A model generated the notes under the pieces. The model had not been told where the DNA came from. It saw only the letters and a list, made by a program, of their open reading frames with translations, and did not search any database. A DNA stretch of 50,092 nucleotides from a virus (lineage: Duplodnaviria > Caudoviricetes), in IMG/VR virus record IMGVR_UViG_3300033149_005642, positions 1 to 50,092 of that record; one strand, 5' to 3'. The translations under genes and the position numbers were made by a program. Positions 1-50,092 of the stretch are shown piece by piece. Position 1 is the stretch's first letter. Every line of letters starts with the position of its first letter.

Positions 1-114
1 AAGCCCCGCCGGGGAAGACGGATGCCCCCCAAGGCCCCGTCCCCCGTCAAAAGTCGGCGGTCGGACAAACGCGTCAGCACCCCTGCCGCCGTGCCTGACA
101 TGGCATCTGCTATA
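1..114. repeat. Terminal direct repeat, left copy (identical to 49979-50092); indicates a circular/complete assembly
   Basis: AAGCCCCGCC...GCATCTGCTATA occurs at both ends of the window. Confidence 0.95.
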
Positions 115-190
115 GTGGCATACCTGGAAAACAGGAACGAGTCCGGTAATGGCAGCGTCAACGTTGACACCACGGCGAAAACCGCCCGCG

Positions 191-697
191 ATGACGAAAG
201 CGTTTGAGCAGGGCAGACGGACCACGCCCGAACAGGAGGCGTTGCTCTACGAGTACGCCGATCCGTTCACCCTCTCTAAGCAGTTTCAGACGCTCGGATG
301 GTCCTACGCCGAGGAGATAAGCATTCTCGTGGAGCTCGCCAGGAAAGCGGAAAGCGAGAGCGTCCGGCTCTCCGCCCTCAAAGCTCTCCGGGCCATCTGG
401 ACCCAGGCGATGGAGCTCCACGGCCTTATCCAGAAAGTTTCGCGTTCCATCTCCGGGGAGCACGACAGCGTCCAGATCACCGAATCCCGGATGGCTTCTT
501 TCCTCGAAAAGCCATCTCCCCAAACTCTTTCCGACCCCGCTCCCGAAAGTCTTCCCGAAAGTCTTCCCGAAAGTCTTCCCGAAAGTCTTCCCGAAAGTTC
601 TTCCGAGTCGTCAGAGGTTTCCAAGCCCCGTCCCCCGTCAGAGTTTTCCCAGGAGGGATCGAACGATGTCGGTGTCTGCTCGCCGCCCAAGTTATGA
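191..697 (+). CDS. Hypothetical protein with (PESL)n repeat tail; possibly terminase small subunit-like
   Basis: ORF 149..697 with likely ATG at 191; helical N-terminus, low-complexity C-terminus; TerS role is only a guess. Confidence 0.55.
   Translation: MTKAFEQGRRTTPEQEALLYEYADPFTLSKQFQTLGWSYAEEISILVELARKAESESVRLSALKALRAIWTQAMELHGLIQKVSRSISGEHDSVQITESRMASFLEKPSPQTLSDPAPESLPESLPESLPESLPESSSESSEVSKPRPPSEFSQEGSNDVGVCSPPKL
542..597 (+). repeat. Tandem 12-bp repeat CCCGAAAGTCTT, about 4.7 copies (encodes PESL)
   Basis: Directly visible. Confidence 0.9.
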
Positions 698-992
698 ATC
701 CGTGTGGCCTCCGGTACGCCGGAAGATATCGGAGCCGTTGGTTCGCAGCGTCGTTTACAGGGTGATGTCCGCGCCCGACATCCGTACTATCGGATTGTGG
801 CCGCAGGCTTCGGTCAACAAGCTCGTCGGAATCGTGATGGCGAAGGTCTCGGAGGAGCGTTTCTACCGGCGCGTCATTCCTTTTCTCCGCAAGATATATA
901 GGGGTGATACGGGGAATTCGGAGGCTCTGGCTCGAACCGTGTGCCTGATGGCGTTGTGCGAAGCCGTCACGGAATATTACAACTGGACGTGA
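666..992 (+). CDS. Hypothetical protein
   Basis: Fills the gap between neighbouring + strand genes; start uncertain. Confidence 0.55.
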   Translation: MSVSARRPSYESVWPPVRRKISEPLVRSVVYRVMSAPDIRTIGLWPQASVNKLVGIVMAKVSEERFYRRVIPFLRKIYRGDTGNSEALARTVCLMALCEAVTEYYNWT

Positions 993-1004
993 GGGTTGAG
1001 TCCG

Positions 1005-1382
1005 ATGAGTATAGAACACGACGTGAACGCTGCAGAAGCATACGTCAACAAGCTGCGCGACCGTGTTCCTCTGCTTTCCCGGTGGATCATCAAGGTGGAG
1101 GTGGAGGACCTGAAGTGCGCAGCGGCCAATATCACGTATGATTGGCAATTGGAGAAGGCCCTCATTCGTTTGTCCCCCTCGTGGCGAAGTCGGAGTCTGG
1201 GAACGTTGGAAGACTTGATGAATCACGAGATAGGGCACCTGTTCGCCGACGAGGACCAATCCGAGGAGCAACGCGCCAGTCTCGTCGCTGCTTTGCTGGC
1301 GGCCATTGGCGAAGAGGAGGAGCACGATGTCCGAGGGAGAAAAGAAGCGCAGCGGGGGAAAGGAAGAGAAGCACAGGCATAA
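1005..1382 (+). CDS. HExxH zinc metallopeptidase-like protein
   Basis: LMNHEIGHL motif followed by a downstream acidic EE. Confidence 0.6.
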   Translation: MSIEHDVNAAEAYVNKLRDRVPLLSRWIIKVEVEDLKCAAANITYDWQLEKALIRLSPSWRSRSLGTLEDLMNHEIGHLFADEDQSEEQRASLVAALLAAIGEEEEHDVRGRKEAQRGKGREAQA

Positions 1383-4188: not shown

Positions 4189-6000
4189 GTGATGAGTCTG
4201 GAACGGGAAGTTCTGGAGTACCTGCCCAGGGATTATGGGGAGTTGACGAAGGACGGGAAGCGGAAGGCCCGCCTCGCCATTCTTCATACTCAGGCTACGC
4301 CCGATGATTACGTGCGCGCCTGGAAGTTCTTCAGGTACGTTTACCTCCTTCAATCGGGCATCTTCTATAAGCGCTTCGTTCCGTCTCCCGCCTACCACGA
4401 ACAAGGAATCAGGGATTTCGCTACGTATCACCTCAACATCTTCGTGGCTCCTCGCGGAGGCGCGAAGTCCACCGTTTTCCTGGAGGAGAACTCGCTGCTC
4501 CTTCTGCTGACCCATCCGCGTATCGTCATCGTGGCAGTTACGTCCACGTTGTCGTTGGTGGAGGAGCGCTTCGATCACCTGATGATCCAGTTGACCGAGA
4601 ATGACTTCATCCTGCACGACTTCGGGAAGCTGCGACCTCCACGGGGTGGGGGCATGTGGAGCCGGAGAAACCTGCGGTTGACGAACCAGGCCCGGATAGT
4701 GGGATTCCCGGTGGAAGGACGGAAGCGGGGAGCGCGTCCCGACGTGGTGTTGTTGGATGACCCGGAGTACGATCCGAAGAATGAGATGTCGGGGACGCGG
4801 CTCCGGGAAGAGTTCGAGGGCATGATGTTCCGGCAGATATTCCCGATGATCGGGACGAGAGGACGACTCTTCTGGAACGGGACATTCATCAGCCGGGCTT
4901 CTTACATTTACCATGCGGCTACGACTCAGGATGACAAGCGGTTCCTGCACTGGAACCGCCGTATCATCCCGGCGGCGGAGGAGCAGGATGACGGAACGTA
5001 CAAGTTGGCGTGGCCGGAATATTGGTCGAGGAAGGACTTGCTGAAGTTGCGGGCGCAAATGGGATACGGGGCCTATGCCGCCGAGATGTTGAACAGGCCG
5101 GTGTCCGACAAGGAGCGGATACTGCGACTCGATCCCGAACTGGATACTTATGCAGTGGATGGGGAGTGGCAGCGTGATCCCTACAACTCGCAGGCTGTCC
5201 TCCATTACGTGGAGACGGATATACGGACGGGAGAGTCTACGCCGGTATCCAGACCGTTCGGGGAGTTCATGCGGAGCCTCTACGTATTGTTTGCGGTGGA
5301 CTACGCGCCGACGGTGGGTCAGTTCTCCGATTTCTCCGTAATTCACGTCATGGGGTTCGACCATCATGATACGTTGTGGTCGCTGGACCTCTGGCAGGGA
5401 AAGGTGTATACGGCGGAACTCATCGCCCGCATCTTCAAGATGGGAGAAATATGGAGGCCGAAGGTGGTGGGGATAGAGGCTGTGGCCGTCCAATACGAGA
5501 TATACGAAAGGGTGAAGGCCGAGTTGCCTCTCTCGATGACGGGGTGGAGTCCCCGTATCCTCCCCGTCCGATATCCTCCTAACGTCTCGAAGGCCGACCG
5601 GTGCGCTTCCCTCCAGTGGCGCTTCAATTGCCATCGCATCAAATATCCGCGAGGCCGCACGGATACTCCCAATTCTGCGTATGCGGCCCTGTTCGCCCAG
5701 ACCGAGAACTTCACGATGGATATGGCGTTGCTGGCCCACGATGACTGCCTGGATACGGTGGCGATGGTACCATATATAGCCAGGGGGAGAGGGAAGAGGC
5801 CGGATGGGCGGGGAGATAGGAAGCCTTCGTTGATGAAGAGGACAAAGGGGGGGTTCAGGCGGCTGGAGGCGATGAATGCCTCGGAACTGACCCCCGAACA
5901 GATACAGGAACTCCTTGACATGGAGGCGGAGGAGGAGTACACTCTCCATAGGGAAGGGGCCGTACCACCTCCCTTGTCGGAAACGACGGTAATGGAATGA
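4189..6000 (+). CDS. terL: Terminase large subunit
   Basis: Walker A APRGGAKST, RGARPDVVLLDDPE Walker B region, C-terminal nuclease VDYA...SDFS...HDDCLD; upstream of portal. Confidence 0.9.
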   Translation: MMSLEREVLEYLPRDYGELTKDGKRKARLAILHTQATPDDYVRAWKFFRYVYLLQSGIFYKRFVPSPAYHEQGIRDFATYHLNIFVAPRGGAKSTVFLEENSLLLLLTHPRIVIVAVTSTLSLVEERFDHLMIQLTENDFILHDFGKLRPPRGGGMWSRRNLRLTNQARIVGFPVEGRKRGARPDVVLLDDPEYDPKNEMSGTRLREEFEGMMFRQIFPMIGTRGRLFWNGTFISRASYIYHAATTQDDKRFLHWNRRIIPAAEEQDDGTYKLAWPEYWSRKDLLKLRAQMGYGAYAAEMLNRPVSDKERILRLDPELDTYAVDGEWQRDPYNSQAVLHYVETDIRTGESTPVSRPFGEFMRSLYVLFAVDYAPTVGQFSDFSVIHVMGFDHHDTLWSLDLWQGKVYTAELIARIFKMGEIWRPKVVGIEAVAVQYEIYERVKAELPLSMTGWSPRILPVRYPPNVSKADRCASLQWRFNCHRIKYPRGRTDTPNSAYAALFAQTENFTMDMALLAHDDCLDTVAMVPYIARGRGKRPDGRGDRKPSLMKRTKGGFRRLEAMNASELTPEQIQELLDMEAEEEYTLHREGAVPPPLSETTVME

Positions 6001-6051
6001 ATTCATCGGTGATGGAATAAATTCATCGGTGATGGAATAAATTCATCGGTG
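5992..6051. repeat. Intergenic tandem 20-bp repeat ATGGAATAAATTCATCGGTG x3 (imperfectly palindromic)
   Basis: Directly visible between terL and the next gene. Confidence 0.9.
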
Positions 6052-6062
6052 GTGACAACGAA

Positions 6063-6437
6063 ATGCTGACTTGGATGTTGGTGCTCCTGATAGTGTCAGT
6101 GACGCTGCAGGGAATCACCCTCTTTGCGTTGGGTTATGGGCTGTGGTTCTTCTCCTCCACACCAGGGGGGCAACCCACCCCGGCGGAGGTTCCCTCGCCC
6201 TCCGTCGAACCACGCTCCACCGAGCGAGTTGCCCCCCGCCCGCCCCCTCCCGTGGCCGCTTCCCGTGTCAGGCAGTTTCTTGAGGACCAGGAACGCGCCG
6301 CCGCCGTAGCCGAGAAGGCGGAATGGGAGGAGGAGTTGAAACGTCCCGGCGTCCTCCTGGACGTAGGATTGGACGGGTTCTCCACGATGAGTGAGACGGG
6401 CGGACCCGACAAGATTGGAGAGTTCATCAGTCAATGA
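6063..6437 (+). CDS. Membrane-anchored hypothetical protein
   Basis: N-terminal hydrophobic segment, Pro-rich linker; stop overlaps portal ATG (ATGA). Confidence 0.65.
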   Translation: MLTWMLVLLIVSVTLQGITLFALGYGLWFFSSTPGGQPTPAEVPSPSVEPRSTERVAPRPPPPVAASRVRQFLEDQERAAAVAEKAEWEEELKRPGVLLDVGLDGFSTMSETGGPDKIGEFISQ

Positions 6438-8482
6438 TTTCCACCTACCTGTTTCCCGAAGACCGGCGAGACGCGGAGAAGGCGCTGGAGGACGCCGCGC
6501 AGGCCGCCATAGCCATTCGTAACGTCCATTCCGTCGGATGGATCATCAACTATCATTATCTCAACGGTATTCGGTCGTTTCCCCTCATCAACTACCGGGA
6601 CGGACGTGTCCAGATAAGGTATTCCAACCAGAAAGGGCAACAGGGTTTCCGCTATGAGGAAGCTCTGGTCCGGTTCACCAACGAACTCGGTCGTCTGTCC
6701 CGTATGGACATCGCGCCGTCCGTAAAACTCCTAGGCATGAGCCTCGACGGCGTTCGGAAGCGTTCCGTAGCTCAAATCGTTCTGTCCAGTCTCTACAATC
6801 CCAGTTACCTCGACACCGTCAAGATTCCGTTCCTGCGGGTGCTCCTCGCTTTCGGCACGGCGGGTATAGCGGGTTGGCGGGTGGAAGGCCCGGACGGCTA
6901 TCCTCGTTACCCCCTCGAAGTGATACCACCTTGGGAGCTTCTGCCCTTTCCCGCCGACCCGGTAGTGCCTGCGGACGAAAAGGGTCTCATTCGGACTCGT
7001 TGGGTTCCGATAGAGTGGCTCAAAACCCATAAGGACGTGTGGAAACGTATCGACCGGTCCCGCCACAACGAGATAAAAGTGATCCGAGTGACTTACGGAA
7101 ACGTGACCACGAGGGAGGCCGGTCCCCAGGCCGGTGCCTCTTCCAACTATCGCTTCTCCGCCGAAATCCGGGAGGGACTCTCGGATGCGATGCTGAAAAG
7201 AGACGGAACGGGGGGCGGTAAGGACATGAGGACGCAGGAGTTCGTAAACCTCCGGGAACTTTGGCTTTACAACGAACTGGGGAAGGTGAGCCAGTACGTG
7301 GTGACGGTGGGAGGCGTGTGTGCCATCAACGATAAGTTCGAGGGCCACGACGCCTATCCTCCCCCCATCGGGATCGCCCGATATCATCATGTCGGCGGGT
7401 TCTGGGGTCGATCCTTCGTCGGACCCCTCATTCCCATCGTGGATGAGACCGAAAAGATGCTGGCGAACCTCTTCACCAACATCCAGGACCTCGACCTCTT
7501 CGGTCTCGTCCTCGTACCTACGACTTCCGGCATCAATCTCAACGCGCTCAACGCCCGCCGGAGGCCCCGTGCCATGCCATACGAGCCGGACGTGGCGGCT
7601 CCCCAACACAAACCCTTCAATCTCACTCCTGCCAATACCGGTACTCTTCCGGGAGAGGTGGCGAAGATGGGGATGGACGTGGTGGAGCGGCTTTCCGGCC
7701 AAACCCAGATGCTCCAGGGCGAGGCTCCGGGCCGTGTAGACTCCGCCAGGGCTCTCGGTCTCCTTATGGAAACCTCGTCCATTCCGCTCGGAGGACCAGC
7801 CGCCACCGTCGCCGCCGCCTTCTCCCTCGTCTATGCCTCCGTCCTGTACGACGCGAGAAAGAGGATGGACGCAAAAGGCGTCGTAAAATATACCTTCCTG
7901 GATGATACGCTTGCGGGAGTAGTCCTCGACCCCGATGGCAACATCTCGCTTGCTGAGAACGCCATTCCCGACCCCGACGAGATCGAGATTTCCATTGCCA
8001 GCCGTTACCCGCAATCCTCCGAGCAGCGGAAAGAGGAACTCTTCCTCCTTCTCAAGGCCGGACTTATCAGCCCCCGGCAATTCCGCATCCAGGCCCGCAT
8101 CCTCGGTCTCGATCTCCCCGTCTCCAACGACGCGGAGTGGGAAAACTATCGACAGGCAGTTCTCAACAACATCCGGCTCTTCAACGACGGCGAAACCCCC
8201 GGCGAGGTGGTGATCGGCGAGCACGAGAACCACGAGATACACCTGGAACGCATCGATGCCTTTATGGCCCGGCCCGAATACCGGCTCGCCAGCGCGGCAG
8301 TCCGGGAAGCCTTCGAGAAGTTGCGGGAAGAGAGACGAGTACGCATGGGCGTATACCCCGATCAGCTTCCTTATCCTGAAGAAATGGCGATGGAGGAAAC
8401 CCAGGGAGGACCTCCGTCTCCTGCAGCGATGGCTGCGCAGGCCGTGCAGCCGTCCCAGGCCCAACAGGTTCCGATAGAATAG
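6434..8482 (+). CDS. Portal protein
   Basis: 682 aa; position between TerL and scaffold; FGTA, FWGRSFVGPLIP, SGQTQMLQG portal-like segments; Q/A-rich tail. Confidence 0.8.
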   Translation: MISTYLFPEDRRDAEKALEDAAQAAIAIRNVHSVGWIINYHYLNGIRSFPLINYRDGRVQIRYSNQKGQQGFRYEEALVRFTNELGRLSRMDIAPSVKLLGMSLDGVRKRSVAQIVLSSLYNPSYLDTVKIPFLRVLLAFGTAGIAGWRVEGPDGYPRYPLEVIPPWELLPFPADPVVPADEKGLIRTRWVPIEWLKTHKDVWKRIDRSRHNEIKVIRVTYGNVTTREAGPQAGASSNYRFSAEIREGLSDAMLKRDGTGGGKDMRTQEFVNLRELWLYNELGKVSQYVVTVGGVCAINDKFEGHDAYPPPIGIARYHHVGGFWGRSFVGPLIPIVDETEKMLANLFTNIQDLDLFGLVLVPTTSGINLNALNARRRPRAMPYEPDVAAPQHKPFNLTPANTGTLPGEVAKMGMDVVERLSGQTQMLQGEAPGRVDSARALGLLMETSSIPLGGPAATVAAAFSLVYASVLYDARKRMDAKGVVKYTFLDDTLAGVVLDPDGNISLAENAIPDPDEIEISIASRYPQSSEQRKEELFLLLKAGLISPRQFRIQARILGLDLPVSNDAEWENYRQAVLNNIRLFNDGETPGEVVIGEHENHEIHLERIDAFMARPEYRLASAAVREAFEKLREERRVRMGVYPDQLPYPEEMAMEETQGGPPSPAAMAAQAVQPSQAQQVPIE

Positions 8483-8492: not shown

Positions 8493-9404
8493 ATGCCGGA
8501 CGAATTGAGAAACGATCAGGACGCAAAGCAGGAGCCGGAACAGGGTGCGGCTCCGGAGACCCCCGCTCCCGCCAAGGAAGAGCCGGACGAGGAGGATGCA
8601 CCACAGACGTTCACTGTCACGGTGAACGGGGAGAAGAGAACGATCACTTTGGAGGAGGCCCTGAAGGCTTACGAGAAGGTGACGGGTGCCGATGAGAAGT
8701 TTCGGGCAGCCGCCGACCTCGCCAAGCAAGCCCAGAAAGGCATACGAATATCCGAACTGTTGGAGAAGGGACGACGGGAGCCGCTCTCCCAATCCGAACT
8801 CATCGAATACGCCAACCTCCTCGGTATTCCACAGGAGGACGTCCTGGCCGCCATGACGGGGGAAGAAGAGGAGGACGAAGGGGAAGAGACGGGGAGCGCC
8901 GCCTCTCCCAGCCTTCCCAAGACCCCGTCCCCCGTCAAGTTCGAGGATTTGGACCCCCAACTGCAACGTGACCTGGAAAAGTTGAGGGAACAGGAGATAG
9001 AACGGGGAAGGGAGGCTATCCGTAAGGAAGTGACGGAGGCTGTTGACAAAGACAAGGTTCTTGGTAAAATGATAGCGGCTTCACCGGACCGCGCCGAAGC
9101 GATCCGGAATCTGGTGCTTATGGAGGTGGAACGGGAAGCGATCGTGTACGGGCAGGAGTACGGACCCGACATGGTGAATAGAGCGATTCAGATCGCTCGG
9201 TCGATAGTCACCTCGCTCGGTACGCCGGAAAGGCCCCAGGAACCCGCACTTCGGGGACTGGGTGTGGCTCCCTCGCTCGGCTCTGAGAGCTTCTATACGG
9301 GGAAACCTCCTAAGCGCGTTCCCGTGACGGACGGTGATTACGAGGACGTGGCAGTACAGCGCTTCTACGCGAGACAGGCGCAACTGCGGGCCGGGTCCCA
9401 ATAA
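8493..9404 (+). CDS. Capsid scaffolding protein
   Basis: Acidic N-terminus, TVTVNGEKRTITLEEALKAY motif, coiled coil; between portal and capsid; AGGAGG RBS. Confidence 0.75.
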   Translation: MPDELRNDQDAKQEPEQGAAPETPAPAKEEPDEEDAPQTFTVTVNGEKRTITLEEALKAYEKVTGADEKFRAAADLAKQAQKGIRISELLEKGRREPLSQSELIEYANLLGIPQEDVLAAMTGEEEEDEGEETGSAASPSLPKTPSPVKFEDLDPQLQRDLEKLREQEIERGREAIRKEVTEAVDKDKVLGKMIAASPDRAEAIRNLVLMEVEREAIVYGQEYGPDMVNRAIQIARSIVTSLGTPERPQEPALRGLGVAPSLGSESFYTGKPPKRVPVTDGDYEDVAVQRFYARQAQLRAGSQ

Positions 9405-9505: not shown

Positions 9506-11011
9506 GTGGCTGCGAATACAAGCACTACGGCTGCAGCCCTGGCCGATCTGGTCAAGGAAGAGTTGCCTCCGGGAATCCGGGAGACCCTACCCGAACTCGA
9601 CCCGGTTTTCACGGAGGTGATTCAAACTTCGCAGGAGGTGGTCCGAGACCTCATTGGCTCGGAATGGAAGATCAGGTACAACCTGGAGACGAGCCTCGCT
9701 GGCGGCGTGAAGTGGGTGTCGCCCGGCGGAGGCACGGTGAACCTCGGTTCGGTCGCCGAGCCTCTCAGGCAGTCTCTGGTGTGGGGAACGCAGCAATCAT
9801 TCCCGACCGCTGCGGAGTCCCCCGCCGTCGGCAACATCCGTCTCACGCTCTCGATGGCGAAACTCTTCGGCAACTTCTACCTGCCGGAGGATGTCTTCGC
9901 GTCCGATGAACTTTCCAGTTCGGTCGTCCGGGAAGTCGTTCGGAACATCAAGGGCGTGGCGAAGCGGGTGGCCCAGCAGAACATCGTCTGGTTCTACCTG
10001 CCTTCCACCGGCGAGCTGTGTACCGTCAGCGGTATCAGTTCGTACAGCGGCAAAGCCGAAATCACGTTCACGCCGGATAACGGGAGAATCCGGTGGTTCT
10101 ACAACGGTATGGTGGTGGACGTTTACAATCAGGACTTCACCACCAACCGCACGTCGGACTTCGCCGTCGTCGTGGACAACGTGGACTACCTGAACAAGAC
10201 GGTCCGGCTCGTTCGTCCCGACGGCACGGCCTTCCCTGCCGGGTTCGTGAATGGGGACAAGGTCGTGGCGAAGGATTGTTACAGCAGCGGGAAACTCGGC
10301 CCTTACGGTCTGGATGACTGGACTAAGAGTTCGGGTGCTCTGTTCGACGCAAGCAGCGGAGTGAACGTGAGCAACTACTCTCAGTTCAAGTCTCTCGTTT
10401 CGGACATTTCGGCCTCTCTGACCGAGTCCACCCTCGCGGAGAAGATGGGCCAGTTCGTGGACGCCTACGGGCTGTACCTCGACACGGTCATCACTACGCG
10501 GGGTGTGACCCAGGGCTTCATGGAGCAACCGACGTTCGGAAAGGGAGAGTTCATCTTCAACCGGCAGGGTGCTCCCCTGAACTTCGTGGGCGGCTGGTCG
10601 AAGGTCGGTTTCGTGTACGACGGGCGGAACTACCAGTGGTTGATTTCGCCCTACATGCGCGAAGAGACCCTCTACGTCGTCAAGCTCGGCGGCAAGAACC
10701 TGAAGCGTTACGTTCCCCCGAACGTTCCGCAGATGGGTTCCCGCGCGGACTTCGGCGGCGAGATTCGGTTCCTTGCCGGTCTCGGAGGCGGATCGGGCAT
10801 CTTCAAGCTCGCTCACACCTCCGCAGGTGCGACTCAGCCGATGGTGGAAGCCCCCTTCATCTCCAGATGCCAGATGGCCCCGGAGATCGTCATGGGGATC
10901 AAACTCACCAGCATCACCGAGTCACCGGCAATCGCCACGACAACCACCACGACAACCAGTACGTCTACGAGCACGACTTCGACGACCACGACTTCCACTA
11001 CGACTCCGTAA
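9506..11011 (+). CDS. Major capsid protein with C-terminal Thr/Ser-rich tail
   Basis: 501 aa, follows scaffold, GGAGG RBS and GTG start, followed by a strong terminator; last 24 residues are almost all T/S. Confidence 0.8.
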   Translation: MAANTSTTAAALADLVKEELPPGIRETLPELDPVFTEVIQTSQEVVRDLIGSEWKIRYNLETSLAGGVKWVSPGGGTVNLGSVAEPLRQSLVWGTQQSFPTAAESPAVGNIRLTLSMAKLFGNFYLPEDVFASDELSSSVVREVVRNIKGVAKRVAQQNIVWFYLPSTGELCTVSGISSYSGKAEITFTPDNGRIRWFYNGMVVDVYNQDFTTNRTSDFAVVVDNVDYLNKTVRLVRPDGTAFPAGFVNGDKVVAKDCYSSGKLGPYGLDDWTKSSGALFDASSGVNVSNYSQFKSLVSDISASLTESTLAEKMGQFVDAYGLYLDTVITTRGVTQGFMEQPTFGKGEFIFNRQGAPLNFVGGWSKVGFVYDGRNYQWLISPYMREETLYVVKLGGKNLKRYVPPNVPQMGSRADFGGEIRFLAGLGGGSGIFKLAHTSAGATQPMVEAPFISRCQMAPEIVMGIKLTSITESPAIATTTTTTTSTSTSTTSTTTTSTTTP

Positions 11012-11131: not shown

Positions 11132-11521
11132 GTGATAAGAATACGCAACGACCGTCACGAAATCCATGAGATACCTTTTTCCGGGTTCCTCCGCCGAACC
11201 TTTCCGGAATTCCCCGGCCTCTTTGTGTATCGTCATCGCACCTCCGGGAACTGGGTCGTAGCTCGGTGGGTACGGGAACGCGACCGTATCGCCCAGGAAC
11301 TTCTCATTATCGGTCCGTCCCTGGCCCGCCTCTCCCGCGAGTTCGTCTCGGAACTCCGCGCCCTCCTGTACCATCCCGTCACAAAACGGGAATTTCTCCG
11401 GGCCGCGTCCCCCTACGAGACCGCATCCCTTGACGCGGCGGTAGAGGCCAACGACGAACACGACTTCTGGCGTCACCGTTGGGGCAAGAAGACGTTCTCC
11501 GTCCCCCGTCTTTGGAGATAG
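11132..11521 (+). CDS. Hypothetical protein
   Basis: ORF with GGGAG RBS, operon packing. Confidence 0.65.
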   Translation: MIRIRNDRHEIHEIPFSGFLRRTFPEFPGLFVYRHRTSGNWVVARWVRERDRIAQELLIIGPSLARLSREFVSELRALLYHPVTKREFLRAASPYETASLDAAVEANDEHDFWRHRWGKKTFSVPRLWR

Positions 11522-37539: not shown

Positions 37540-37568
37540 AGTGTAGTTCATTTGGAGGTCCTTGTCAA
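37540..37568 (-). promoter_or_regulatory. sigma70-type promoter for the recombination genes
   Basis: TTGACA-17 bp-TACACT on the - strand. Confidence 0.7.
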
Positions 37569-41503: not shown

Positions 41504-41563
41504 GGCAGTGCTCCACCGAAGAACGGAACGGATTGTTGGGAGTTCTGTGTCCCGTCCCCCGTC

Positions 41564-41592
41564 AGTATAGCGGATGGAAGGGGACGTGTCAA
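41564..41592 (-). promoter_or_regulatory. Near-consensus sigma70 promoter for the DNA polymerase operon
   Basis: TTGACA-17 bp-TATACT on the - strand, with an A/T-rich tract upstream. Confidence 0.85.
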
Positions 41593-41848
41593 GCGAAAAA
41601 AGATAAAATAAGGTAAAATTTTTTTTGGGAAGAGCGAGTGGAAATTTCAATGTAGGGGGGCCTCTCCCCCATGCCTTGATGAACGTCGAGATGGGCTCGT
41701 CGTAACTCTTTGCGGTGCAAGAGGTTATGACTTGCTTCCTCTTTATTGATCGCGCGCGCGCGACCTGGTATGCTGGCGGTGTCGGCGCGCGTCGCGTCGA
41801 GGGAAGGGTAGGTGGGGGTGGTATGGGGTGGTATAGGACGGGAAGGAG

Positions 41849-42115
41849 GTGATGGATGTTGGCACGGTGATAGAGGAGGTGGAGGCGTTCCTGGATGGTA
41901 GGGAGGCCCACCGGGAAGGCCTACGTTCCACCGGTCGGGAGCTATGGAGGGGCCCCACCCTCGTGGCCCGGTGGAACAGAGGGGCAGTCGAGGTCCTTTC
42001 CCCTGTAAGGGGGGAGTCCCCCCAGGTGAGGAAGGACAGGGTGGTGCTGGTGCGGGCGATCGCACTGGCAATGAGGAGAAGACAACATGGACACCATACA
42101 GGTGACGGTCATTGA
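41849..42115 (+). CDS. Hypothetical protein, first gene of the G-rich accessory arm
   Basis: AGGAGGT RBS. Confidence 0.6.
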   Translation: MMDVGTVIEEVEAFLDGREAHREGLRSTGRELWRGPTLVARWNRGAVEVLSPVRGESPQVRKDRVVLVRAIALAMRRRQHGHHTGDGH

Positions 42116-42362: not shown

Positions 42363-43085
42363 ATGAGCGAGAAGAGGACGTGGATAATCGTTGGGGCGGG
42401 GGGGCTGCTGTACCATAGCCTGCCAGCCCTGGCGGTGTATGCAGGGGAGCGGGTGCTGACGGTGGACCCCGACATTGTGGAGGAGGGCAACGCGGGGAGA
42501 CAGTGGCCGGGAGGCAGGGGCTGGGGGAAGGCCCTGCTGGCCGGGAAGGCGTTGGGGGAGTTGGCGGGGTGTACGGAGGTTCGTCCCGTCTCGGTGGAGG
42601 CGGAGAAGGATGAGGTGGCGATGTGGTTGGGTATGGAGGGGAGCCGTCCGGGGAAGAAGGTGGGGGTTGTGTGTTTGCCCGACAACGACAAGGCCAGGAT
42701 GGGGTGCGTGGCCGGGTTCAGGAGGGCCGGGGTCCCTGATGCGGTGGCGATCCTGGCGGGGAACAATGTGCAGGGGGGGTGGGTAGCGGGGACGAGGACG
42801 GACGAGAAGGGACGGCTGGTGTGGAACCCGGTGAGGGCACTGGGAATAGGACGCCAGCAGGCAAGGGGAGAGAGGAGGCCCTGCGGGTGGAACCAGCAGA
42901 GTCTGGAGGGGAATGCCAGGACGGCGGGCTTGGTGGCCCAGGCCCTGGCGGCGATGGTGGAGGGAGGAGCCCCATGCTGTTATGGGGAATGGGAGTTGGG
43001 GGAGGAGAAGGAATTGGGTCGTCAGGACAGGTGGCTGTGGCAAGTGGGACCACAGGTGCCGGGTTTCCATAAGGAGGGTGAGTGA
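42363..43085 (+). CDS. ThiF/E1-like adenylyltransferase
   Basis: IIVGAGG, VDPDIVEEGNAGRQ, K, CLPDNDKAR, and candidate catalytic PC followed by Q....N...A. Confidence 0.82.
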   Translation: MSEKRTWIIVGAGGLLYHSLPALAVYAGERVLTVDPDIVEEGNAGRQWPGGRGWGKALLAGKALGELAGCTEVRPVSVEAEKDEVAMWLGMEGSRPGKKVGVVCLPDNDKARMGCVAGFRRAGVPDAVAILAGNNVQGGWVAGTRTDEKGRLVWNPVRALGIGRQQARGERRPCGWNQQSLEGNARTAGLVAQALAAMVEGGAPCCYGEWELGEEKELGRQDRWLWQVGPQVPGFHKEGE

Positions 43086-44095
43086 TGGTAGAGGGACTGT
43101 GGTATCAGGGGGGCAAGATTTGGAGAGTTGCGAGGGGGGAAGGCGTGGAGGCCGTCGTTCCGGTGACGGACCGGTGGCTGGAGTCGGTGCAGGTAGAGGG
43201 GGAGGAGGGGGAGCCCAGGTTGGTGAAACTGAGTGAGGAGTTGATACCTCCCCCACGGGAGGTGGGGACCTGGTTGAGGTTCCTCCGGCCCACCGCCCAG
43301 AGGATGGGGGTGGAGGTGGGGGGGTATGTGTTGAGGAGGAAGAAGAAGGGGGAGGAAGGGGGATGGGAGTGGACGATGTATTGTCCTCCCCAGGAGTGCA
43401 GTGCGGCAGGGTGGTCGGTGACCGAGGTGGACCAGAAGGTCCACCTCCCGCTCGCCCTGAGGATAGATGGGGGTGGATGGCAGAGGATAGGGACGATGCA
43501 CCTGCATCCGGGAGGTGCACGGCACGGGGCACCGGAACCTTCCGGGATTGATGAGCGGGAATGGGAGGACAATCCGGGGGTCTATCTTATAGGGTGGACC
43601 CAGGAGGGGAGTCACGTGTCGGTGAGCGTGGCGGTGATAGGCCATGTATTCCCGTTTGTGGTGGGGATACGGGCCATCATGGGGGGAGACGGGGTCGTAT
43701 GGACCGAGGGGGGCAAACCCCTTGGGGAATTAGTGAGGAAGAGGACGTATTCCTCCTCGTACTTGTGCTCCACCGCGTGGGAGTGGAGTAAGGGAGGTAC
43801 GGGGCGGAGCGCCGAGGAGAACTGGAGGACGGGATACGACCGGGTGTTCGGGTACGGGTACGGGTACGAGGACTACGGGAAGGAGGACATCGGTGGGGGA
43901 GTACAGGGGGATGTCGGGAGTTACAGTTATGTACCGGCATCGCTGGACGAGGCTATCCTGGATGCTGAGGCCAGTGTGAGTGAGGCACTGGACTGGGCCG
44001 AGGTGGCCGGGACGGAGAGGGAGCAGAAGAAGATAAAGAGGGCCCTGCGCCTCATACAGGAGGTGGAGGCCGCCCGCATGGAAAGGGGGGAGTGA
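43082..44095 (+). CDS. JAB/JAMM (MPN+) metalloprotease
   Basis: Upstream E (GVEVGG), PPQECS, GTMHLHP...PSGID (HxH-x-S-x2-D). Confidence 0.75.
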   Translation: MMVEGLWYQGGKIWRVARGEGVEAVVPVTDRWLESVQVEGEEGEPRLVKLSEELIPPPREVGTWLRFLRPTAQRMGVEVGGYVLRRKKKGEEGGWEWTMYCPPQECSAAGWSVTEVDQKVHLPLALRIDGGGWQRIGTMHLHPGGARHGAPEPSGIDEREWEDNPGVYLIGWTQEGSHVSVSVAVIGHVFPFVVGIRAIMGGDGVVWTEGGKPLGELVRKRTYSSSYLCSTAWEWSKGGTGRSAEENWRTGYDRVFGYGYGYEDYGKEDIGGGVQGDVGSYSYVPASLDEAILDAEASVSEALDWAEVAGTEREQKKIKRALRLIQEVEAARMERGE

Positions 44096-44096
44096 G

Positions 44097-45683
44097 ATGA
44101 GTCAGCAGACCAGTAAGACCAGGTGGCCGGGGATGGTGAGTTGTAGGACCAGGAACCCGTTGCATCGTCCTCTAGTGGAAGGGGTCCCGGAGGAGCGCGA
44201 GTGGACGGGGGTCCTGTTGTGGTGGAGGGCCCTGGGGCGGGGAGAGTGTAGGGTGTACTCCCATGGTGGTATGCAGTTCACGAGGACTGGGCGGTTGGCA
44301 CCCACGGTGCTCTTGAGGGATGGGGGGGAGGACCGGGTGTGGGGGAAATATGAGGACGGGATGCTGGAGTTCGGCATACCAGGGGCGATATTGGAGGCCA
44401 TGCGGGGGAGAGCTGAGGAGGGCCTGGACGTGGTGATCCCCCAGATGGCGGATTGTAGGGTGCCCCAGTCGAGTAGTGGAGCGTCCCTGTGCCTGGTGGT
44501 CCTGAATGGGACCGTCATGTATCCATGTACGGGGGTGGATTACGGGGACGTTCGGAGCGGCCAGGTGTTGAAGGGAGTAGTGACCGGGTGGGGGGTGAGT
44601 CCCACGAATGAGCTGGTGAGGAGGGGATGGTGGGCGTACCACCTGGAGGATGAGGTTCTCGACAAGTGGGCCGAGATACTGGGGAGTTGGAAGGAGCAGG
44701 GAATAGGTCAGAGAATGGGGATACTGGAGTGGAGGCCGGGGAAGGGGAGCACCTGGATCGATGCATGGTTGGAGAAGGGGACGACGAGGCGGATTGTGCG
44801 GATGAAGAGGTACGGTCCCGTGAAGGGGTTCCGGATCGGGGAGGAAGAGGAGAGGGAACCGGTCAGCCGGAGGCAGCGGTGGACGGTGGCGCAGAGGTAC
44901 CGGGTGGGACGGTGGTGCCAGGTGTGTGGGAGACTGGTGAAGGATGGGAGAGTGTGGGTACACTCCGACTGTGGTAGGGAGTGGTTGGAGGTGCCGTGTG
45001 ACCAGTGCGGGGAACTCGTCGAGGTCTCCGGGGATGAATACGAGGAGGTTGTGGTCGAGCAAGGACGGTATGTATGTGAGGACTGTAGGGGACCCGTCTA
45101 CTACTGCGCGGGGTGTGGGGAGAGACTGGACGAGGAGGACGTGTATACGCATGATGATGACGTGTACTGCCATTCCTGTTGGGAGGACGTGTTAGGGGAA
45201 TTCCAGCGGGAAGAGGAGAGGGAGTGTGTGGTGTGTGGAAGTAGGGTGACCGGGTATACTGACGCGGAGTGGGACGAGAACAGGGAGTTGTGTGAGGACT
45301 GCTACAGGGAAGCTGAGCGGGCAAGGCACTGCTCCCGGTGTACCAGGACGGAGAGGGGGTACATGGACGAGGAGTGGGAGGAGGGAGGAGAGATATGTAC
45401 CAGGTGCTGGGCGAGGGACCAGGGCATACTGGTATGCGAGTCGTGTGGATTGTGGATGAGGGGGTTCGACGAGAGGGTGTGGAGGCGGTGGGGCAGGAGG
45501 TGCCCGGAGTGTGCGAACGCTTACGGAGGGGTGTGGGAAGGAGAAGTAGAGAGGGAATTGGAGCAGTATGCGGGGTCGCGTAGGATCTCCATAAGGACGA
45601 GGAGCCGGGGAGGGTTCGTCCCCCGCGCCCCGGTTAGGGAATATAGGAGGGCGAGCGTTCCCCCAGGAGGTAACCAGGGATAG
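44097..45683 (+). CDS. Protein with tandem CxxC zinc-finger repeats
   Basis: About 11 CxxC pairs in the C-terminal half; N-terminal half unrecognised. Confidence 0.75.
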   Translation: MSQQTSKTRWPGMVSCRTRNPLHRPLVEGVPEEREWTGVLLWWRALGRGECRVYSHGGMQFTRTGRLAPTVLLRDGGEDRVWGKYEDGMLEFGIPGAILEAMRGRAEEGLDVVIPQMADCRVPQSSSGASLCLVVLNGTVMYPCTGVDYGDVRSGQVLKGVVTGWGVSPTNELVRRGWWAYHLEDEVLDKWAEILGSWKEQGIGQRMGILEWRPGKGSTWIDAWLEKGTTRRIVRMKRYGPVKGFRIGEEEEREPVSRRQRWTVAQRYRVGRWCQVCGRLVKDGRVWVHSDCGREWLEVPCDQCGELVEVSGDEYEEVVVEQGRYVCEDCRGPVYYCAGCGERLDEEDVYTHDDDVYCHSCWEDVLGEFQREEERECVVCGSRVTGYTDAEWDENRELCEDCYREAERARHCSRCTRTERGYMDEEWEEGGEICTRCWARDQGILVCESCGLWMRGFDERVWRRWGRRCPECANAYGGVWEGEVERELEQYAGSRRISIRTRSRGGFVPRAPVREYRRASVPPGGNQG

Positions 45684-45929: not shown

Positions 45930-46100
45930 ATGAGAATCGTGATAAGGTTGGAAGGGGGGTACCTGTCGGAAGTGATGGTGCCCCCAGGGTATCCGTGGAG
46001 GGTGATACTATGGGATAGGATGGACGATCGGGAGGATGACGTGGAGTACGATGAGGATACGGAGGGGTTGGTACCCGTGGAATGGGAGGTGAAGCCATGA
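45930..46100 (+). CDS. Small acidic hypothetical protein
   Basis: GGAGG RBS; ATGA overlap with next gene. Confidence 0.55.
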   Translation: MRIVIRLEGGYLSEVMVPPGYPWRVILWDRMDDREDDVEYDEDTEGLVPVEWEVKP

Positions 46101-46309
46101 AGTGCAGGATATGCGGGAAGAAGGGGTTCAAGGCGGCGTGGGAGGTGGCCGCCCACAAGGCCAAGGAACATCCGGGGGCACCGAGCAGGAGGGAAGAACG
46201 GATGACGGGGGACGGGGTAAGGGGGAAGAAGAAGGGGGGAATGGAAGAGTTCGTGTTCCGGCACTGTCCCCACTGTGGGGGCAGGTTGCCGAGGGTAGTA
46301 GGGTTTTAG
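46097..46309 (+). CDS. C2H2-like zinc finger protein
   Basis: CRICGKKGF...AAHKAKEH plus CPHCG. Confidence 0.65.
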   Translation: MKCRICGKKGFKAAWEVAAHKAKEHPGAPSRREERMTGDGVRGKKKGGMEEFVFRHCPHCGGRLPRVVGF

Positions 46310-46563: not shown

Positions 46564-46590
46564 GCGTGATTGTTTGACGGGGGACGGAGA

Positions 46591-47389: not shown

Positions 47390-48410
47390 CATACGGGCGC
47401 GGCGGTCCTGAGGATTGCCGCGCCCTCTTTCCATCCCGCTTATCCCGCCGCGTATCCCGCCTAGTTTCCTCAATCTCCAGATCGCCGCGCGCCCGTTTCG
47501 CCGCTCCAGCGCCATGGAGCGCCCGTATTGCGCCCGGCGCGCCGCTGGAGTGTCTATGCCCCGCCTAGCCCGCCGGGCGCTCTACGGGCGCTCCACGGCC
47601 GCTCTATGGCCGCTCTCCATGTATCCGGCGGTGTCGGGCGCTTTCCGGCGATGTTCGGCGGTGTCGGGCGCGCGAAGCAGTCGGCCCCCTGGAAGCGAGC
47701 GGTGAGAGGGCCAAACACCTCACCCCCATCTCCCCCCTGACCGACCGTTTGAATAACCTCTCGAACTCAACCACCTAGTGCCAATTTCCCTATACTCTTT
47801 CCCCCCAACCCTTTGTGACACGCCTCGAAACCCCCTACGGTACTTTTCCCCACGTGTCTAATCCGCTCAACATGTCTCAAAGTGAGATAGCCTTACTCTC
47901 CCAACGACTTACGACTCGTTCTCAAAATGATATAAACCCGCGTAGACCATCCACCGATGGCTCGATAACGGGTAAATACTTTAGCACTGGCATTACTGAT
48001 CAATCGTTATACGGCCAATTACCCAAATCCTAATTGGTATCACTAACATAACCCTAACTTTATACTATTATATACGGTTATATACATTTCCGCCGCCCCA
48101 ACCCCTTACACCCCAACCACTTACGCCATCCTCTGACCCCGTCCCCCGTCAATGAGCCTCCCGAAATCTGTCTCATTTTGCGACGATCGGCCCCGACCCC
48201 CCGGCCTGCCCCATACCCTCTCTGAGCGAAATCTCATTGAGCCGTCTTTCTCTACTACCTAGTACCTCTTCAGAAGCATACAAAAACTCTTCCCCTAGAT
48301 GGTCTACGAGCACGCAAAGGAAATTGAGATTTGTCATAACTCCTTTCGCTGCAACGATCCCCCATTACCCCCGTTTTCACAAAGGCCCTTTCTTACTCTT
48401 CGCGGGGTGT
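47390..48410. other. Long probably non-coding region with G-to-C skew flip and AT-rich core; candidate origin or physical genome end
   Basis: No convincing ORF; TATACTATTATATACGGTTATATAC at about 48061-48085. Confidence 0.45.
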
Positions 48411-48442: not shown

Positions 48443-48488
48443 GTTCACAGTCGTCCACACCTCTTTTTCTCTTTTTGGAGGCTCGACC

Positions 48489-49019
48489 ATGACGCAGCCA
48501 CAGCCACAGCCACATACGCCGTTCCGTCCGAAGACTTATGAAAGGTTCACGTGGGGGTGCGGCCACACGACGAATGTTCCCCTCCGCGTCCCCCACCCTC
48601 CGACTTTCCGCACGGCCCTTTGTCCGGACTGCTATTTCCACGCCCATCCGCCTCCTCCCCGACGAGGACGCTACGCCCACCGGATAACCGGCACCTACTA
48701 TTGCGGCCATCCTTTTCGTATACACGTTCCTCGCGGCGACGAAGAACGGCGGCTCGCCTGGTTCGTGGCCGTCAACTCTCTCTGCCCCGCCTGCATCTTC
48801 GAGTGGGAGACCGCAGAGGCTATTCGGCAACGAGGGCTACCTGACGACTCTCCCGCTTACCAGCCTGACGACCGAACCGCCTTCACACTCCACCTCACCA
48901 AGTCGGCCATTTGGAGGCTTGAAACCCTGGCGGCCCGTCACCGCCAGAAACCCTCCGATTTCCTGATGGACCTTCTTCGGTCCCTTCTTCCCGGCCCCGC
49001 AGCGGAGGACTCGAAATGA
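48489..49019 (+). CDS. Duplicated CGH...LCPxC zinc-ribbon protein with possible C-terminal ribbon-helix-helix
   Basis: WGCGH...LCPDC and YYCGH...LCPAC; FTLHLTKSAIWRLETLA; GGAGG RBS. Confidence 0.65.
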   Translation: MTQPQPQPHTPFRPKTYERFTWGCGHTTNVPLRVPHPPTFRTALCPDCYFHAHPPPPRRGRYAHRITGTYYCGHPFRIHVPRGDEERRLAWFVAVNSLCPACIFEWETAEAIRQRGLPDDSPAYQPDDRTAFTLHLTKSAIWRLETLAARHRQKPSDFLMDLLRSLLPGPAAEDSK

Positions 49020-49417
49020 GTATCCCATTCAATACCCGTCGGCCCGACGAATCCATCTTCCATCGCTCCGTCCCCCGTCAAATCGTCGAAGAAATCGCCG
49101 CCCACACCGGCCACCACCTGATCGAGGTAGAGGACATCCTGGCCGCTTATCATCGCGCCATCCTCTACCGTGTCCTTCTGGGCCGCCCCGTCGTCCTGCG
49201 CGGCTTCGGCACCTTCTCGTCCCGCCTCTATCATGCGAGACAGGTCTTCTGCCCTGCCGACGGCACTACCCGTGAAGTCCCGAACCGCCGCATCCTTCAC
49301 TTCAAAATGAGTCCCACTCTCCGCCCCTACATGTCCACAAGCCCGGCAGCCTACAACGATCCCGAAACCCCCGGCACAACCCCCCCGAAAAGCTCCGAGG
49401 ACCCCGAAAAGCCTTGA
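49016..49417 (+). CDS. HU/IHF-family DNA-binding protein
   Basis: VVLRGFGTF...ARQVFCPADG...VPNRRILHFKMSPTLR. Confidence 0.85.
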   Translation: MSIPFNTRRPDESIFHRSVPRQIVEEIAAHTGHHLIEVEDILAAYHRAILYRVLLGRPVVLRGFGTFSSRLYHARQVFCPADGTTREVPNRRILHFKMSPTLRPYMSTSPAAYNDPETPGTTPPKSSEDPEKP

Positions 49418-49442
49418 CAAACTCCCAACCATCTCGTACATT
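49414..49442 (+). promoter_or_regulatory. sigma70-type promoter
   Basis: TTGACA-17 bp-TACATT. Confidence 0.75.
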
Positions 49443-49486
49443 ATTACTGTGTAGGGCGCACGTGAGCCTCGGAGGAGAAGACCCAT

Positions 49487-50092
49487 ATGAGCGCACACGA
49501 GATTCTGAAGGGTGAACGGAACGAAGACGGGGGACGGGGTACTTCTTCCCCCCTTCTTCCTTCTCCGGTCTACAAGGTCCTCAAGCTCGGCAACTCTCTC
49601 GAACTCCGAACCGTCGAGGAGTTGGCGATAGAGTGGGGATTCAAGACCAAATCGACCGCCGTAAAATTTCTCCGCGCCCTGAACGTTCCCCTCCTCCACA
49701 TCAACCGGGATTCCTACTTCTCGGTTCATGCGCTGGAGATGGCGCTCTTCAGCGTGACGGAATGGGGAGCGAAAGGTTTTGCGGCTCCGGGTAGTCACTT
49801 CCGCGACAAGCGCTATCCTTATCTCCGCCACCAACCCAACGTGGAAAAGATACGCCTCGCGCCCAGCGACATGCCGTCTCTGAAAGAACGGGAAGCTCTC
49901 CACAGGAGAATGAGCGAGGCGGCGGCGCGAAGGCTGGATGTTGTAGGGAAGGCCGTCTCTCGACTCCTCCACCAACCCAAGCCCCGCCGGGGAAGACGGA
50001 TGCCCCCCAAGGCCCCGTCCCCCGTCAAAAGTCGGCGGTCGGACAAACGCGTCAGCACCCCTGCCGCCGTGCCTGACATGGCATCTGCTATA
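49487..50092 (+). CDS. Hypothetical (possibly HTH) protein spanning the circular junction, ending at 207
   Basis: GGAGGA RBS, ATG 49487, open to the window end and in frame with ORF 22..207; RTVEELAIEWG helix-turn-helix-like segment. Confidence 0.7.
   Translation, partial: MSAHEILKGERNEDGGRGTSSPLLPSPVYKVLKLGNSLELRTVEELAIEWGFKTKSTAVKFLRALNVPLLHINRDSYFSVHALEMALFSVTEWGAKGFAAPGSHFRDKRYPYLRHQPNVEKIRLAPSDMPSLKEREALHRRMSEAAARRLDVVGKAVSRLLHQPKPRRGRRMPPKAPSPVKSRRSDKRVSTPAAVPDMASAI
49979..50092. repeat. Terminal direct repeat, right copy
   Basis: Identical to 1-114. Confidence 0.95.

Follow-up and report, generated by a model that had tools for sequence, protein, structure and literature searches.

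In the phages LLS, P1 and MD8, the host Chi sequence is the most frequent octamer of the phage genome, as described in a published study (PMC12315714). The study gives 23 Chi sites for LLS, or one per 1.86 kb, against 0.85 expected (about 27-fold), 50 for P1, or one per 1.9 kb, and 32 copies of the Pseudomonas Chi variant for the Pseudomonas phage MD8, and it describes Chi as differing between host groups (GCTGGTGG versus GCTGGCGC) (PMC12315714). In the cos phages covered there, nearly all Chi sites point one way, 20:3 in LLS and 32:0 in MD8, with the enzyme entering at one end (PMC12315714), and the Chi-rich lambdoids reportedly have no recombination module. The stoperators of Cluster A mycobacteriophages are a second described system, in which more than 20 asymmetric 13-mers are spread across a genome of about 50 kb, are recognized with high specificity, lie in promoters and short intergenic gaps, and are oriented with transcription (PMC9283540). 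Here we analyze the motif CCGTCCCCCGTC, which recurs across the genome of an uncultured phage (Duplodnaviria; Caudoviricetes), IMG/VR record IMGVR_UViG_3300033149_005642. The whole record of 50,092 nucleotides is referred to below as the window; it is complete, its bases 1–114 are identical to 49979–50092, and its unique length is 49,978.

A sharp motif across the window

The exact 12-mer occurs 30 times in the window (17 on the plus strand and 13 on the minus strand), or 29 times in unique sequence (16 and 13) since the copy at 37 is the copy at 50015, and this confirms the 29 or so copies, 16 on plus and 13 on minus, counted in a preliminary description of this DNA. The same description estimated well under one copy by chance, and that estimate holds: Markov backgrounds of order 0–5 on the unique 49,978 bases expect 0.021–0.46 copies (0.034–0.094 with the motif masked), and of 100 dinucleotide shuffles, which averaged 0.06 copies and never gave more than 1, none reached 30. 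The motif is the most frequent 9- to 14-mer of the window. It consists of the heptamer CCCCGTC twice in tandem, in most copies with an A after it; the 14-mer CCCCGTCCCCCGTC occurs 24 times (0 for the reversed pattern as a control), there are 18 copies of the 15-mer with the final A, and lone CCCCGTC outside the motif is at background, with 26 observed versus 16–27 expected. The motif is also sharp. When the 15-mer is searched with up to three mismatches, 39 matches are found, 31 of them within two mismatches, and 30 of these 31 contain the exact 12-mer core, while the 8 three-mismatch matches are at chance level (7.0 ± 2.7 expected for the whole list). The flanks of the copies are unique. Because 29 exact copies sit in unique flanks and the same phenomenon is found in five independent relatives, a sequencing or assembly artifact is very unlikely.

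The copies are listed below by position, strand and setting. Open reading frames (ORFs) are those of a curated list of 57, derived from codon-position composition and family matches.

37–48, plus: the same copy as 50015–50026 through the 114-base end overlap; inside the junction ORF (PSPV)
628–639, plus: 3′ end of the TerS-like ORF 149–697, 26 nt upstream of ATG 666
2113–2124, plus: the sole near-variant of the core, with one mismatch (15-mer CCACGTCCCCCGTCA at 2111–2125)
8925–8936, plus: inside ORF 8493–9404 (PSPV)
11499–11510, plus: 17 nt upstream of ATG 11528
14162–14173, minus: supplies the stop of ORF 12901–14163; G-arm of pair 1
14239–14250, plus: C-arm of pair 1
20490–20501, plus: 67 nt upstream of the start at 20569
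21432–21443, minus: intergenic; G-arm of pair 2
21485–21496, plus: intergenic; C-arm of pair 2, 21 nt upstream of ATG 21518
23290–23301, minus: inside ORF 21518–24082 (TGDG)
25338–25349, minus: inside ORF 24119–25573 (GRGTG); G-arm of pair 3
25448–25459, plus: inside ORF 24119–25573 (PSPV); C-arm of pair 3
29611–29622, plus: near the 5′ end of ORF 29582–32845 (PRPPS)
31360–31371, minus: inside ORF 29582–32845 (TGDG)
32850–32861, minus: intergenic, where the plus and minus gene blocks converge; G-arm of pair 4
32899–32910, plus: C-arm of pair 4; supplies the stop of the minus-strand ORF 32909–34045
34573–34584, minus: intergenic; G-arm of pair 5, 13 nt upstream of the minus-strand ATG 34559
34631–34642, plus: intergenic; C-arm of pair 5
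37309–37320, plus: in the 335-nt gap 37213–37547
37744–37755, minus: inside the ERCC4-like nuclease ORF 37548–38084
39671–39682, plus: inside the DNA polymerase gene (DGGR)
40621–40632, minus: inside the DNA polymerase gene (PVPRQ)
40965–40976, minus: inside the DNA polymerase gene (RPPS)
41552–41563, plus: inside the DNA polymerase gene (DGGR)
46204–46215, minus: inside ORF 46097–46309 (TGDG)
46576–46587, minus: intergenic
48139–48150, plus: in the gene-poor stretch 47.4–48.5 kb
49068–49079, plus: inside the HU-like ORF 49016–49417
49526–49537, minus: inside the junction (winged-helix) ORF

Copies inside genes lie on both strands and are translated in all three frames, as PSPV, PRPPS, (S)VPR(L/Q), DGGR, TGDG and GRGTG, which bears out the earlier view that it is independent of strand and frame and is not driven by protein sequence. 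Two genes end on a stop codon that the motif supplies, as had also been noted: the TGA at 14161–14163 stops ORF 12847/12901–14163, and the TCA at 32909–32911 stops the minus-strand ORF 32909–34045. Ten of the 30 copies extend at least partly outside genes, and 13 are at a gene boundary, a clear excess for a curated map that is 94% coding. The three longest gaps without a copy (0.6–8.9, 14.3–20.5 and 41.6–46.2 kb) consist largely of genes that relatives do not share. The five pairs of copies less than 150 nt apart are all inverted with the G-rich arm first, and four of the five are at gene boundaries.

Variants of the motif in related phages

With the large terminase as query, 82 homologs of 25–55% identity were found in a protein collection, many of them on contigs of 47–59 kb, and a profile search of IMG/VR confirmed 365 relatives, with 80 loci kept. 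In most of the 20 closest loci, the top 11-mers were a different recurrent word. Five relatives, whole or nearly whole, were compared with the window: G154 (47.1 kb), G155, G157, G158 and a 30.9-kb fragment, G156. Each of them carries a motif of its own on both strands, namely CCCCGACAG 52 times in G154, GCCCCGCAG 29 times in G155, CCCCTGCAG 29 times in G157, CCTCAGCAG 54 times in G158 and CCTCCGCAG 31 times in the partial G156. In the window and in each of the five relatives the top-ranking oligomer is the genome's own motif, and the mean site spacing across these genomes is 0.9–2.0 kb. Sharp, lineage-specific, genome-wide motifs are a trait of a whole uncultured phage family, and the phenomenon is more general than the single genome showed. 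Literature searches, with supplements outside their scope, returned no report of this phage family or of alternating genome-wide motifs in phages.

The 9-mers of the relatives are as sharp as the window motif, and in G154, 52 of the 53 occurrences of CCCGACAG are preceded by an extra C. A loose form is common to the variants, CC(C/T)C..(G/A)CAG(A), or CTG(C/T).G(G/A)GG on the G-rich strand, and the 3′ half of the window motif, CCCCGTCAa, fits it. Written as their G-rich strands, CTGCGGGGC, CTGCAGGGG, CTGCTGAGG, CTGCGGAGG and CTGTCGGGG, the variants have one common form. Sites in the relatives are mostly intragenic, with 5 of 29, 4 of 29, 5 of 54, 2 of 31 and about 7 of 52 being intergenic; the greater intergenic share in the window may be due to its longer motif, which coding sequence would accommodate less easily.

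An alignment of the six polymerases indicates that the motif sites are not insertions. In G155, G157 and G158, each genome has its own variant at the same polymerase codons, which read L-R-G, L-Q-G and L-L-R (QFEIL-RG, -QG and -LR), so that the amino acids are altered to suit the DNA word. In 11 core genes taken together, 11 site pairs, each from two different genomes, lie no more than 3 alignment columns apart, versus 3.9 ± 2.0 in 2000 permutations (P = 0.0025), and part of this coincidence could come from shared amino-acid compatibility. On the evidence of the aligned sequences, the sites are of old standing and have been rewritten in place. The capsid-like gene of the window and its four homologs contain no sites.

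Strand arrangement and candidate readers

If strand is ignored, the spacing of the sites is near Poisson, with a coefficient of variation (CV) of 0.74–1.12. A per-strand test in six genomes, in which positions were kept fixed and strand labels were shuffled 3000 times, gave a different result. The summed per-strand CV was 8.70 versus 10.57 ± 0.55 under shuffled labels, and 0 of 3000 shuffles were as low, so that the sites of each strand are distributed with more regularity than chance would give. The longest gaps on a strand fall short of those in the null (P = 0.0017), and there are 25 same-strand gaps below 500 nt where 40 are expected (P = 0.0003). Neighboring sites within 1 kb are on opposite strands in 83 cases and on the same strand in 41, and the strand alternates in 135 of 218 steps versus about 119.5 expected; the per-strand mean spacing is about 1.7–5 kb. 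Even spacing per strand together with opposite-strand neighbors points to a directional reader, one that moves along one strand or in one direction, and the non-random strand arrangement argues against an orientation-blind reader and against uptake sequences.

The sites do not follow the genes. In the window, 17 copies run with local transcription and 13 against it, and in relatives the corresponding counts are 13/11, 8/17, 30/19 and 17/12. With sites that take no account of gene direction, the directional reader is not RNA polymerase. Pfam scans covered 56 of the 57 curated ORFs (ORF 16051–16380 was left out) and found no integrase, repressor, partition, RNA polymerase or primase family, though distant forms could escape them. 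A phage RNA polymerase acting at late promoters was rejected as an explanation, as 13 of the 30 copies are antisense, 20 of the 30 are inside genes, and no RNA polymerase family was found.

Our tentative first choice, which we hold as possible rather than probable and which draws on the analogy with Chi-rich phages, is that the motif may be a Chi-like, direction-sensitive signal that an end-processing helicase-nuclease would read, in a genome that would be circularly permuted. A travelling machine would enter at a free DNA end and read a sharp asymmetric sequence on one strand; it would most likely be a helicase-nuclease of the RecBCD/AddAB kind that, at the site, would switch from degradation to making a recombinogenic end. 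Given a circular assembly and probably headful packaging, virion ends could fall anywhere, and a correctly oriented site would be needed within a few kb of any end in both directions. Permuted ends of this sort would lead to equal frequencies of the two orientations, even spacing within each orientation, and indifference to genes and frames. The end overlaps of 114, 114, 127 and 127 bases in four unrelated records may be the assembler's overlap of circular maps, which would fit permuted genomes. We infer the kind of reader, its action and the circular permutation from patterns of this type, and consider a host enzyme of the RecBCD/AddAB type to be the more likely reader, with the phage's own nuclease module as a bolder alternative. 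Like LLS, P1 and MD8, the family has an asymmetric, G-rich top oligomer that occurs about once per 1–2 kb, is intragenic and frame-blind, and comes in variants, which in those phages go with host groups. The preliminary description had offered a phage protein binding site, a host genome signature and a self-marking signal as readings; we favor the self-marking or Chi-like idea because of the even per-strand spacing and the published Chi-rich phages, whereas the binding proteins it had named fared poorly.

Several points weigh against the Chi-like reading. Known Chi sites are 5–8 nt long. The motif cores here are 9 nt in the relatives and 12–15 nt in the window versus the 8 nt of the Chi-rich phages, and the enrichment is 60 to more than 600-fold versus the approximately 27-fold of LLS. 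Orientations are balanced and alternating here, in contrast to the nearly one-way 20:3 and 32:0 of the published cos phages, a difference that we would put down to permuted ends. The Chi-rich lambdoids reportedly have no recombination module, whereas this family does, with its PD-(D/E)XK nuclease and AAA_24 ATPase. In the bacterial genomes sampled, which amount to less than 1% of the species in the collection and were picked without knowledge of the host, the motif is at chance level and no host could be named. Finally, avoidance of deletion-prone close direct repeats could explain the short-range evenness without any directional function, but not the shortened largest gaps. The motif thus resembles phage Chi enrichment while departing from it in length, strength and orientation pattern, and there is a real chance that it is something new.

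If the Chi-like reading is true, the family would reveal recognition sequences of end-processing nucleases in hosts without a known Chi, the motif would be a possible tag for host prediction, and the family would show a phage rewriting dozens of sites when the recognized sequence changes. In any event, even and alternating spacing offers a simple statistic for telling directional signals from ordinary binding sites, one that can be used on any phage genome.

Other readings turn on proteins that the phage itself encodes. The recognized genes of the window, which also include a metallophosphoesterase identified by family match, are as follows.

149–697: TerS-like ORF, with a blastp match in all five relatives
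4192–6000, plus: large terminase (phrog_38, E 8e-46)
6434–8482: portal-like protein
9506–11011: capsid-like gene
16799–19288: family-2 glycosyltransferase–methyltransferase fusion, by family match
19289–20242: second family-2 glycosyltransferase, by family match
32909–34045, minus: P-loop helicase-like protein, common to only two of the five relatives
35208–36080, minus: AAA_24 ATPase, part of a conserved recombination module
36073–37212, minus: PD-(D/E)XK (RecB/Cas4-like) nuclease, with a tblastn match in four of the five relatives; a candidate phage-encoded reader
37548–38084: ERCC4-like nuclease
38113–38742, minus: small N6-adenine DNA methyltransferase-like protein of 209 aa (phrog_799, E 6e-40), with LDPAAGG and NPPF motifs
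38729–41911, minus: family A DNA polymerase fused to a UDG-like domain, by family match
49016–49417: HU-like protein, Pfam match to Bac_DNA_binding
49487–50092 and on to base 207 of the circle, plus: junction ORF of 232 aa with a winged-helix domain

The large terminase, portal-like protein, ERCC4-like nuclease, AAA_24 ATPase and polymerase have tblastn matches in all five relatives.

One alternative, unlikely in our estimate, is phage-encoded self-marking, in which the phage's own PD-(D/E)XK and AAA_24 module, or an unrecognized primase, would read the lineage-specific 9–15-nt variant. Marks at intervals of a few kb on each strand would spare the phage DNA, or serve to prime it, and unmarked DNA would be degraded. 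Reader and motif would co-evolve, and all 30–50 sites would be altered in place as specificity drifts. A phage-encoded reader would make this a new type of genome self-marking. No universal phage-encoded reader was found among the candidates compared across the window and the five relatives.

Also doubtful is the proposal that the motifs are sites of a phage-encoded, sequence-specific DNA-binding protein (a stoperator-like repressor, a TerS or packaging protein, or a nucleoid protein) that co-evolves with its site. In being sharp, asymmetric, 12–15 bp long and present in about 30 copies, the motif has the size and number of stoperators (PMC9283540), and the two systems are alike in having many copies of a long asymmetric site genome-wide, here 29 unique 12–15-mers. 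The variants follow phage lineage with sites that change in place, and the share of window copies not fully inside a gene is high for so densely coding a map. Stoperator specificity reportedly evolves between mycobacteriophage lineages. The region of the winged-helix and TerS-like genes holds four copies in 1.6 kb, and the phage has HU-like, winged-helix and TerS-like proteins, the last of them in all five relatives. No other IMG/VR contig has a dispersed 15-mer: 48 stretches matched, 47 of them with a single match, and the sole multi-copy contig, 2728369575_000002 (two stretches), has 5 copies, three of which form one overlapping tandem array. The analogy to stoperators drawn in the preliminary description nevertheless fails on orientation, since stoperators follow transcription, and here orientation and transcription are not correlated. 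Most copies in the family are also intragenic, and no repressor, integrase or partition gene came out of the Pfam scans. A site that is read in the duplex, moreover, gives no reason for evenness on each strand.

The individual proteins that had been put forward as readers do not fit well. The HU-like protein at 49016 is a real Bac_DNA_binding protein, but it has no homolog in the five relatives and was rejected. For the junction ORF at 49487, the winged-helix domain is confident in the predicted structure (predicted local distance difference test score of about 90, residues 40–91), Foldseek matches to ArsR/SmtB, RacA and TubR are weak (E 0.1–0.7), and a homolog search found only the ORF itself. 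Its recognition helix varies among the phages that share CCTCCGCAG and so tracks the motif poorly, and no homolog was detectable in G157, which leaves the junction ORF a weak candidate. An ORF at 48489 described as resembling a ribbon-helix-helix protein has no family match, and a proposed helix-turn-helix protein at 46327 gave only hints at E 0.02–0.045.

We regard as improbable a role for the motifs as strand-specific priming or replication start sites, read by a primase with an unusually long recognition sequence, one site per Okazaki-fragment length. Such a role would suit the even per-strand spacing with its mean of about 1.7–5 kb, the independence of the sites from genes, and a family that has its own family A polymerase. 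GTC, GCA and CTG are the primase-site trinucleotides of T7, SP6 and E. coli; the C-rich strand of the window motif contains GTC twice, and the relatives have GCA or CTG. However, known bacterial and phage primase sites are 3–5 nt long, neither Pfam nor PHROGs revealed a primase in the window, and the P-loop helicase-like protein is common to only a minority of the relatives. The skew of G at wobble positions between 16 and 47 kb hints at one-way replication, yet the sites in that region are 9 plus and 11 minus.

It is highly unlikely that the motif is a host-genome signature other than Chi, such as an uptake sequence or an arm of a repetitive palindromic element. The DNA uptake sequences of Neisseriaceae and the uptake signal sequences of Pasteurellaceae have cores of 9–12 nt, occur about once per kb on both strands, lie inside genes and as inverted pairs between genes, and come in lineage dialects. 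The motifs here are like them in core length, density, presence on both strands, intragenic sites, inverted intergenic pairs and lineage variants, and the likeness ends with the carrier: the uptake sequences sit in bacterial chromosomes with a competence pilin, whereas here a phage family has sites of non-random orientation, and none of the bacterial genomes sampled was a motif-rich host. Since uptake is indifferent to orientation, it gives no reason for per-strand evenness. The 12-mer itself does occur in bacteria, forming the arms of a palindromic element in the Coriobacteriia metagenome-assembled genome G001, with 19 copies in 2.3 Mb, and lying in heptamer-array palindromes of more than 120 metagenome contigs, mostly of 65–73% G+C, that a search for inverted pairs of the 12-mer retrieved. 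These bacterial copies, however, are in discrete palindromes or tandem arrays and not singly dispersed, and 0 of 120 metagenome contigs encode relatives of the phage proteins. G001 was rejected as the host, as its 19 copies are arms of a discrete element that its class does not share; 250 other genomes of the class have at most 3 copies of the 12-mer each. The glycosyltransferase block at 16.8–20.2 kb, which is probably host-derived, has no copy. The small genome samples described above gave no dense excess of the kind expected of a host signature, and in 301 genomes of the order of G261 the G157 11-mer is at chance level, with at most 6 copies each.

In a scan of bacterial genomes with the 15-mer, the matches listed are single occurrences, found in many unrelated genomes (L053, L057, L060, L063, L070 and others), and many of them arise because the 15-mer, read on the other strand, codes for the conserved (M)TGDGVND motif of P-type ATPases. 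A perfect palindrome, about 70 bp long and with the 12-mer as its outer arms (GTGACGGGGGACGG...CCGTCCCCCGTCAC), is present in G001 (L177–L182) and in metagenome contigs L314, L345, L396 and L401. Other metagenome contigs (L301, L305, L311, L315, L378 and others, 65–73% G+C) have palindromes with arms of 2–5 heptamers, (GGGGACG)n...(CGTCCCC)n, several per 10 kb, and these look like a family of repetitive extragenic elements. A prophage-like IMG/VR contig, L163/L167 (G002), has four tandem CCCCGTC heptamers at 14066–14091 that give overlapping 12-mer matches. Cultured relatives of the phage are too remote to point to a host (TerL about 23% identity, polymerase about 26%), and a protein atlas returned only 'Viruses'. 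A scan with one 14-mer of G158, perhaps a word that is rare in G158 itself, returned no motif-rich contig.

Very improbable, too, is the idea that the motif is the iterated target of a DNA methyltransferase, similar to HIP1, kept by methylation-linked repair or as a methyl mark. HIP1 is a palindrome. Both HIP1-type sequences and the motifs here are short words iterated far above chance, and some members of the family do have methyltransferase genes: an N6-adenine methyltransferase-like protein adjoins the polymerase gene of the window, and a DPPY-type methyltransferase is found by tblastx in G156, L191 and L192, beside the DNA polymerase gene in G156, and elsewhere in G158. Several variants contain CTGCAG or GCAG, and a phage fragment, G159, combines 60 copies of CTGCAG in 16.7 kb with the same methyltransferase. 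In contrast to HIP1 and other known iterated palindromes, however, the motifs are asymmetric and 9–15 nt long, and PF01555, phrog_799 and PF00145 were not found in G154, G155 and G157, despite their 52, 29 and 29 sites. A methyltransferase was accordingly rejected as a universal reader, being present in the window, G156 and G158 and not found in the other three.

The methyltransferase-like protein at 38113–38742 has no match in Pfam or NCBIfam and was not found in the relatives; the G156 enzyme belongs to another class and occupies the matching position beside the polymerase gene. The fragment G159 (L522, 18.3 kb, with its own TerL and DnaB) has 15 copies of CCCCTGCAG and was considered as an unrelated phage sharing a motif of the family; it was rejected since its real word is the palindrome CTGCAG and the 9-mer is not sharp. 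Its 60 copies of CTGCAG in 16.7 kb, where about 4 are expected, and the DPPY-type methyltransferase that it shares with G156, L191 and L192 are an iterated-palindrome phenomenon of their own.

Least likely of all is that the copies are RNA hairpin arms, terminators or processing sites: the close pairs, with their consistent G-arm-first inversion mostly at gene boundaries, form stems of 14–17 bp as RNA, the three short intergenic pairs fold with z-scores of −3.5 to −4.5, and one pair in G156 is flanked by an A-run that would be a U-run on the coding strand, as in an intrinsic terminator, but 19 of the 29 unique copies are single, the loops in the window are 37–98 nt with no U-tract after the stem, the other two pairs score like shuffles (z −1.4 and −1.6), the window has no Rfam match, and copies in the relatives are mostly single and intragenic. 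Hairpin formation is probably secondary, a use made of sites that had settled where they are tolerated.

Further features of the window

Plus-strand genes begin at about 41.85 kb and continue through the junction up to 32,845, and minus-strand genes run from 41,911 down to 32,909. The 1087-aa protein of ORF 29582–32845 has a PLxRFG domain (E 6e-9, below the curated cut-off) and is probably a tail protein. A tRNA scan of the window found none, and sequence searches of the PDB with three window proteins gave nothing useful.

At third codon positions the plus strand is G-rich from about 16000 to 47000, in plus and minus genes alike (G3 0.43–0.50 in plus genes; C3 0.46–0.61 in minus genes). This is a strand asymmetry independent of transcription, and it reverses at 48–50 kb. 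In the gene-poor stretch at 47.4–48.5 kb there is a 32-nt inverted repeat (47511–47599, 88% complementary, 25-nt spacer), possibly an origin or regulatory element.

The 3′ part of the TerS-like ORF contains, at 517–600, a 12-nt tandem repeat (TCCCGAAAGTCT-like, about 5 copies) that encodes LPES repeats; it adjoins the densest cluster of motif copies, near the assembly junction. Three 20-nt tandem repeats at 5987–6054 span the 3′ end of the large terminase gene and the bases just beyond it. An accessory cluster at 42363–45683, with no motif copies, has a weak ThiF-like match, a Prok-JAB domain just above the cut-off and a double-zinc-ribbon protein, and resembles ubiquitin-like conjugation modules. 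Several virion-region ORFs have long Thr/Ser-rich coding repeats (10938–11008, 12477–12817 and 14562–15200) near the two family-2 glycosyltransferase genes, which suggests that virion proteins are glycosylated.

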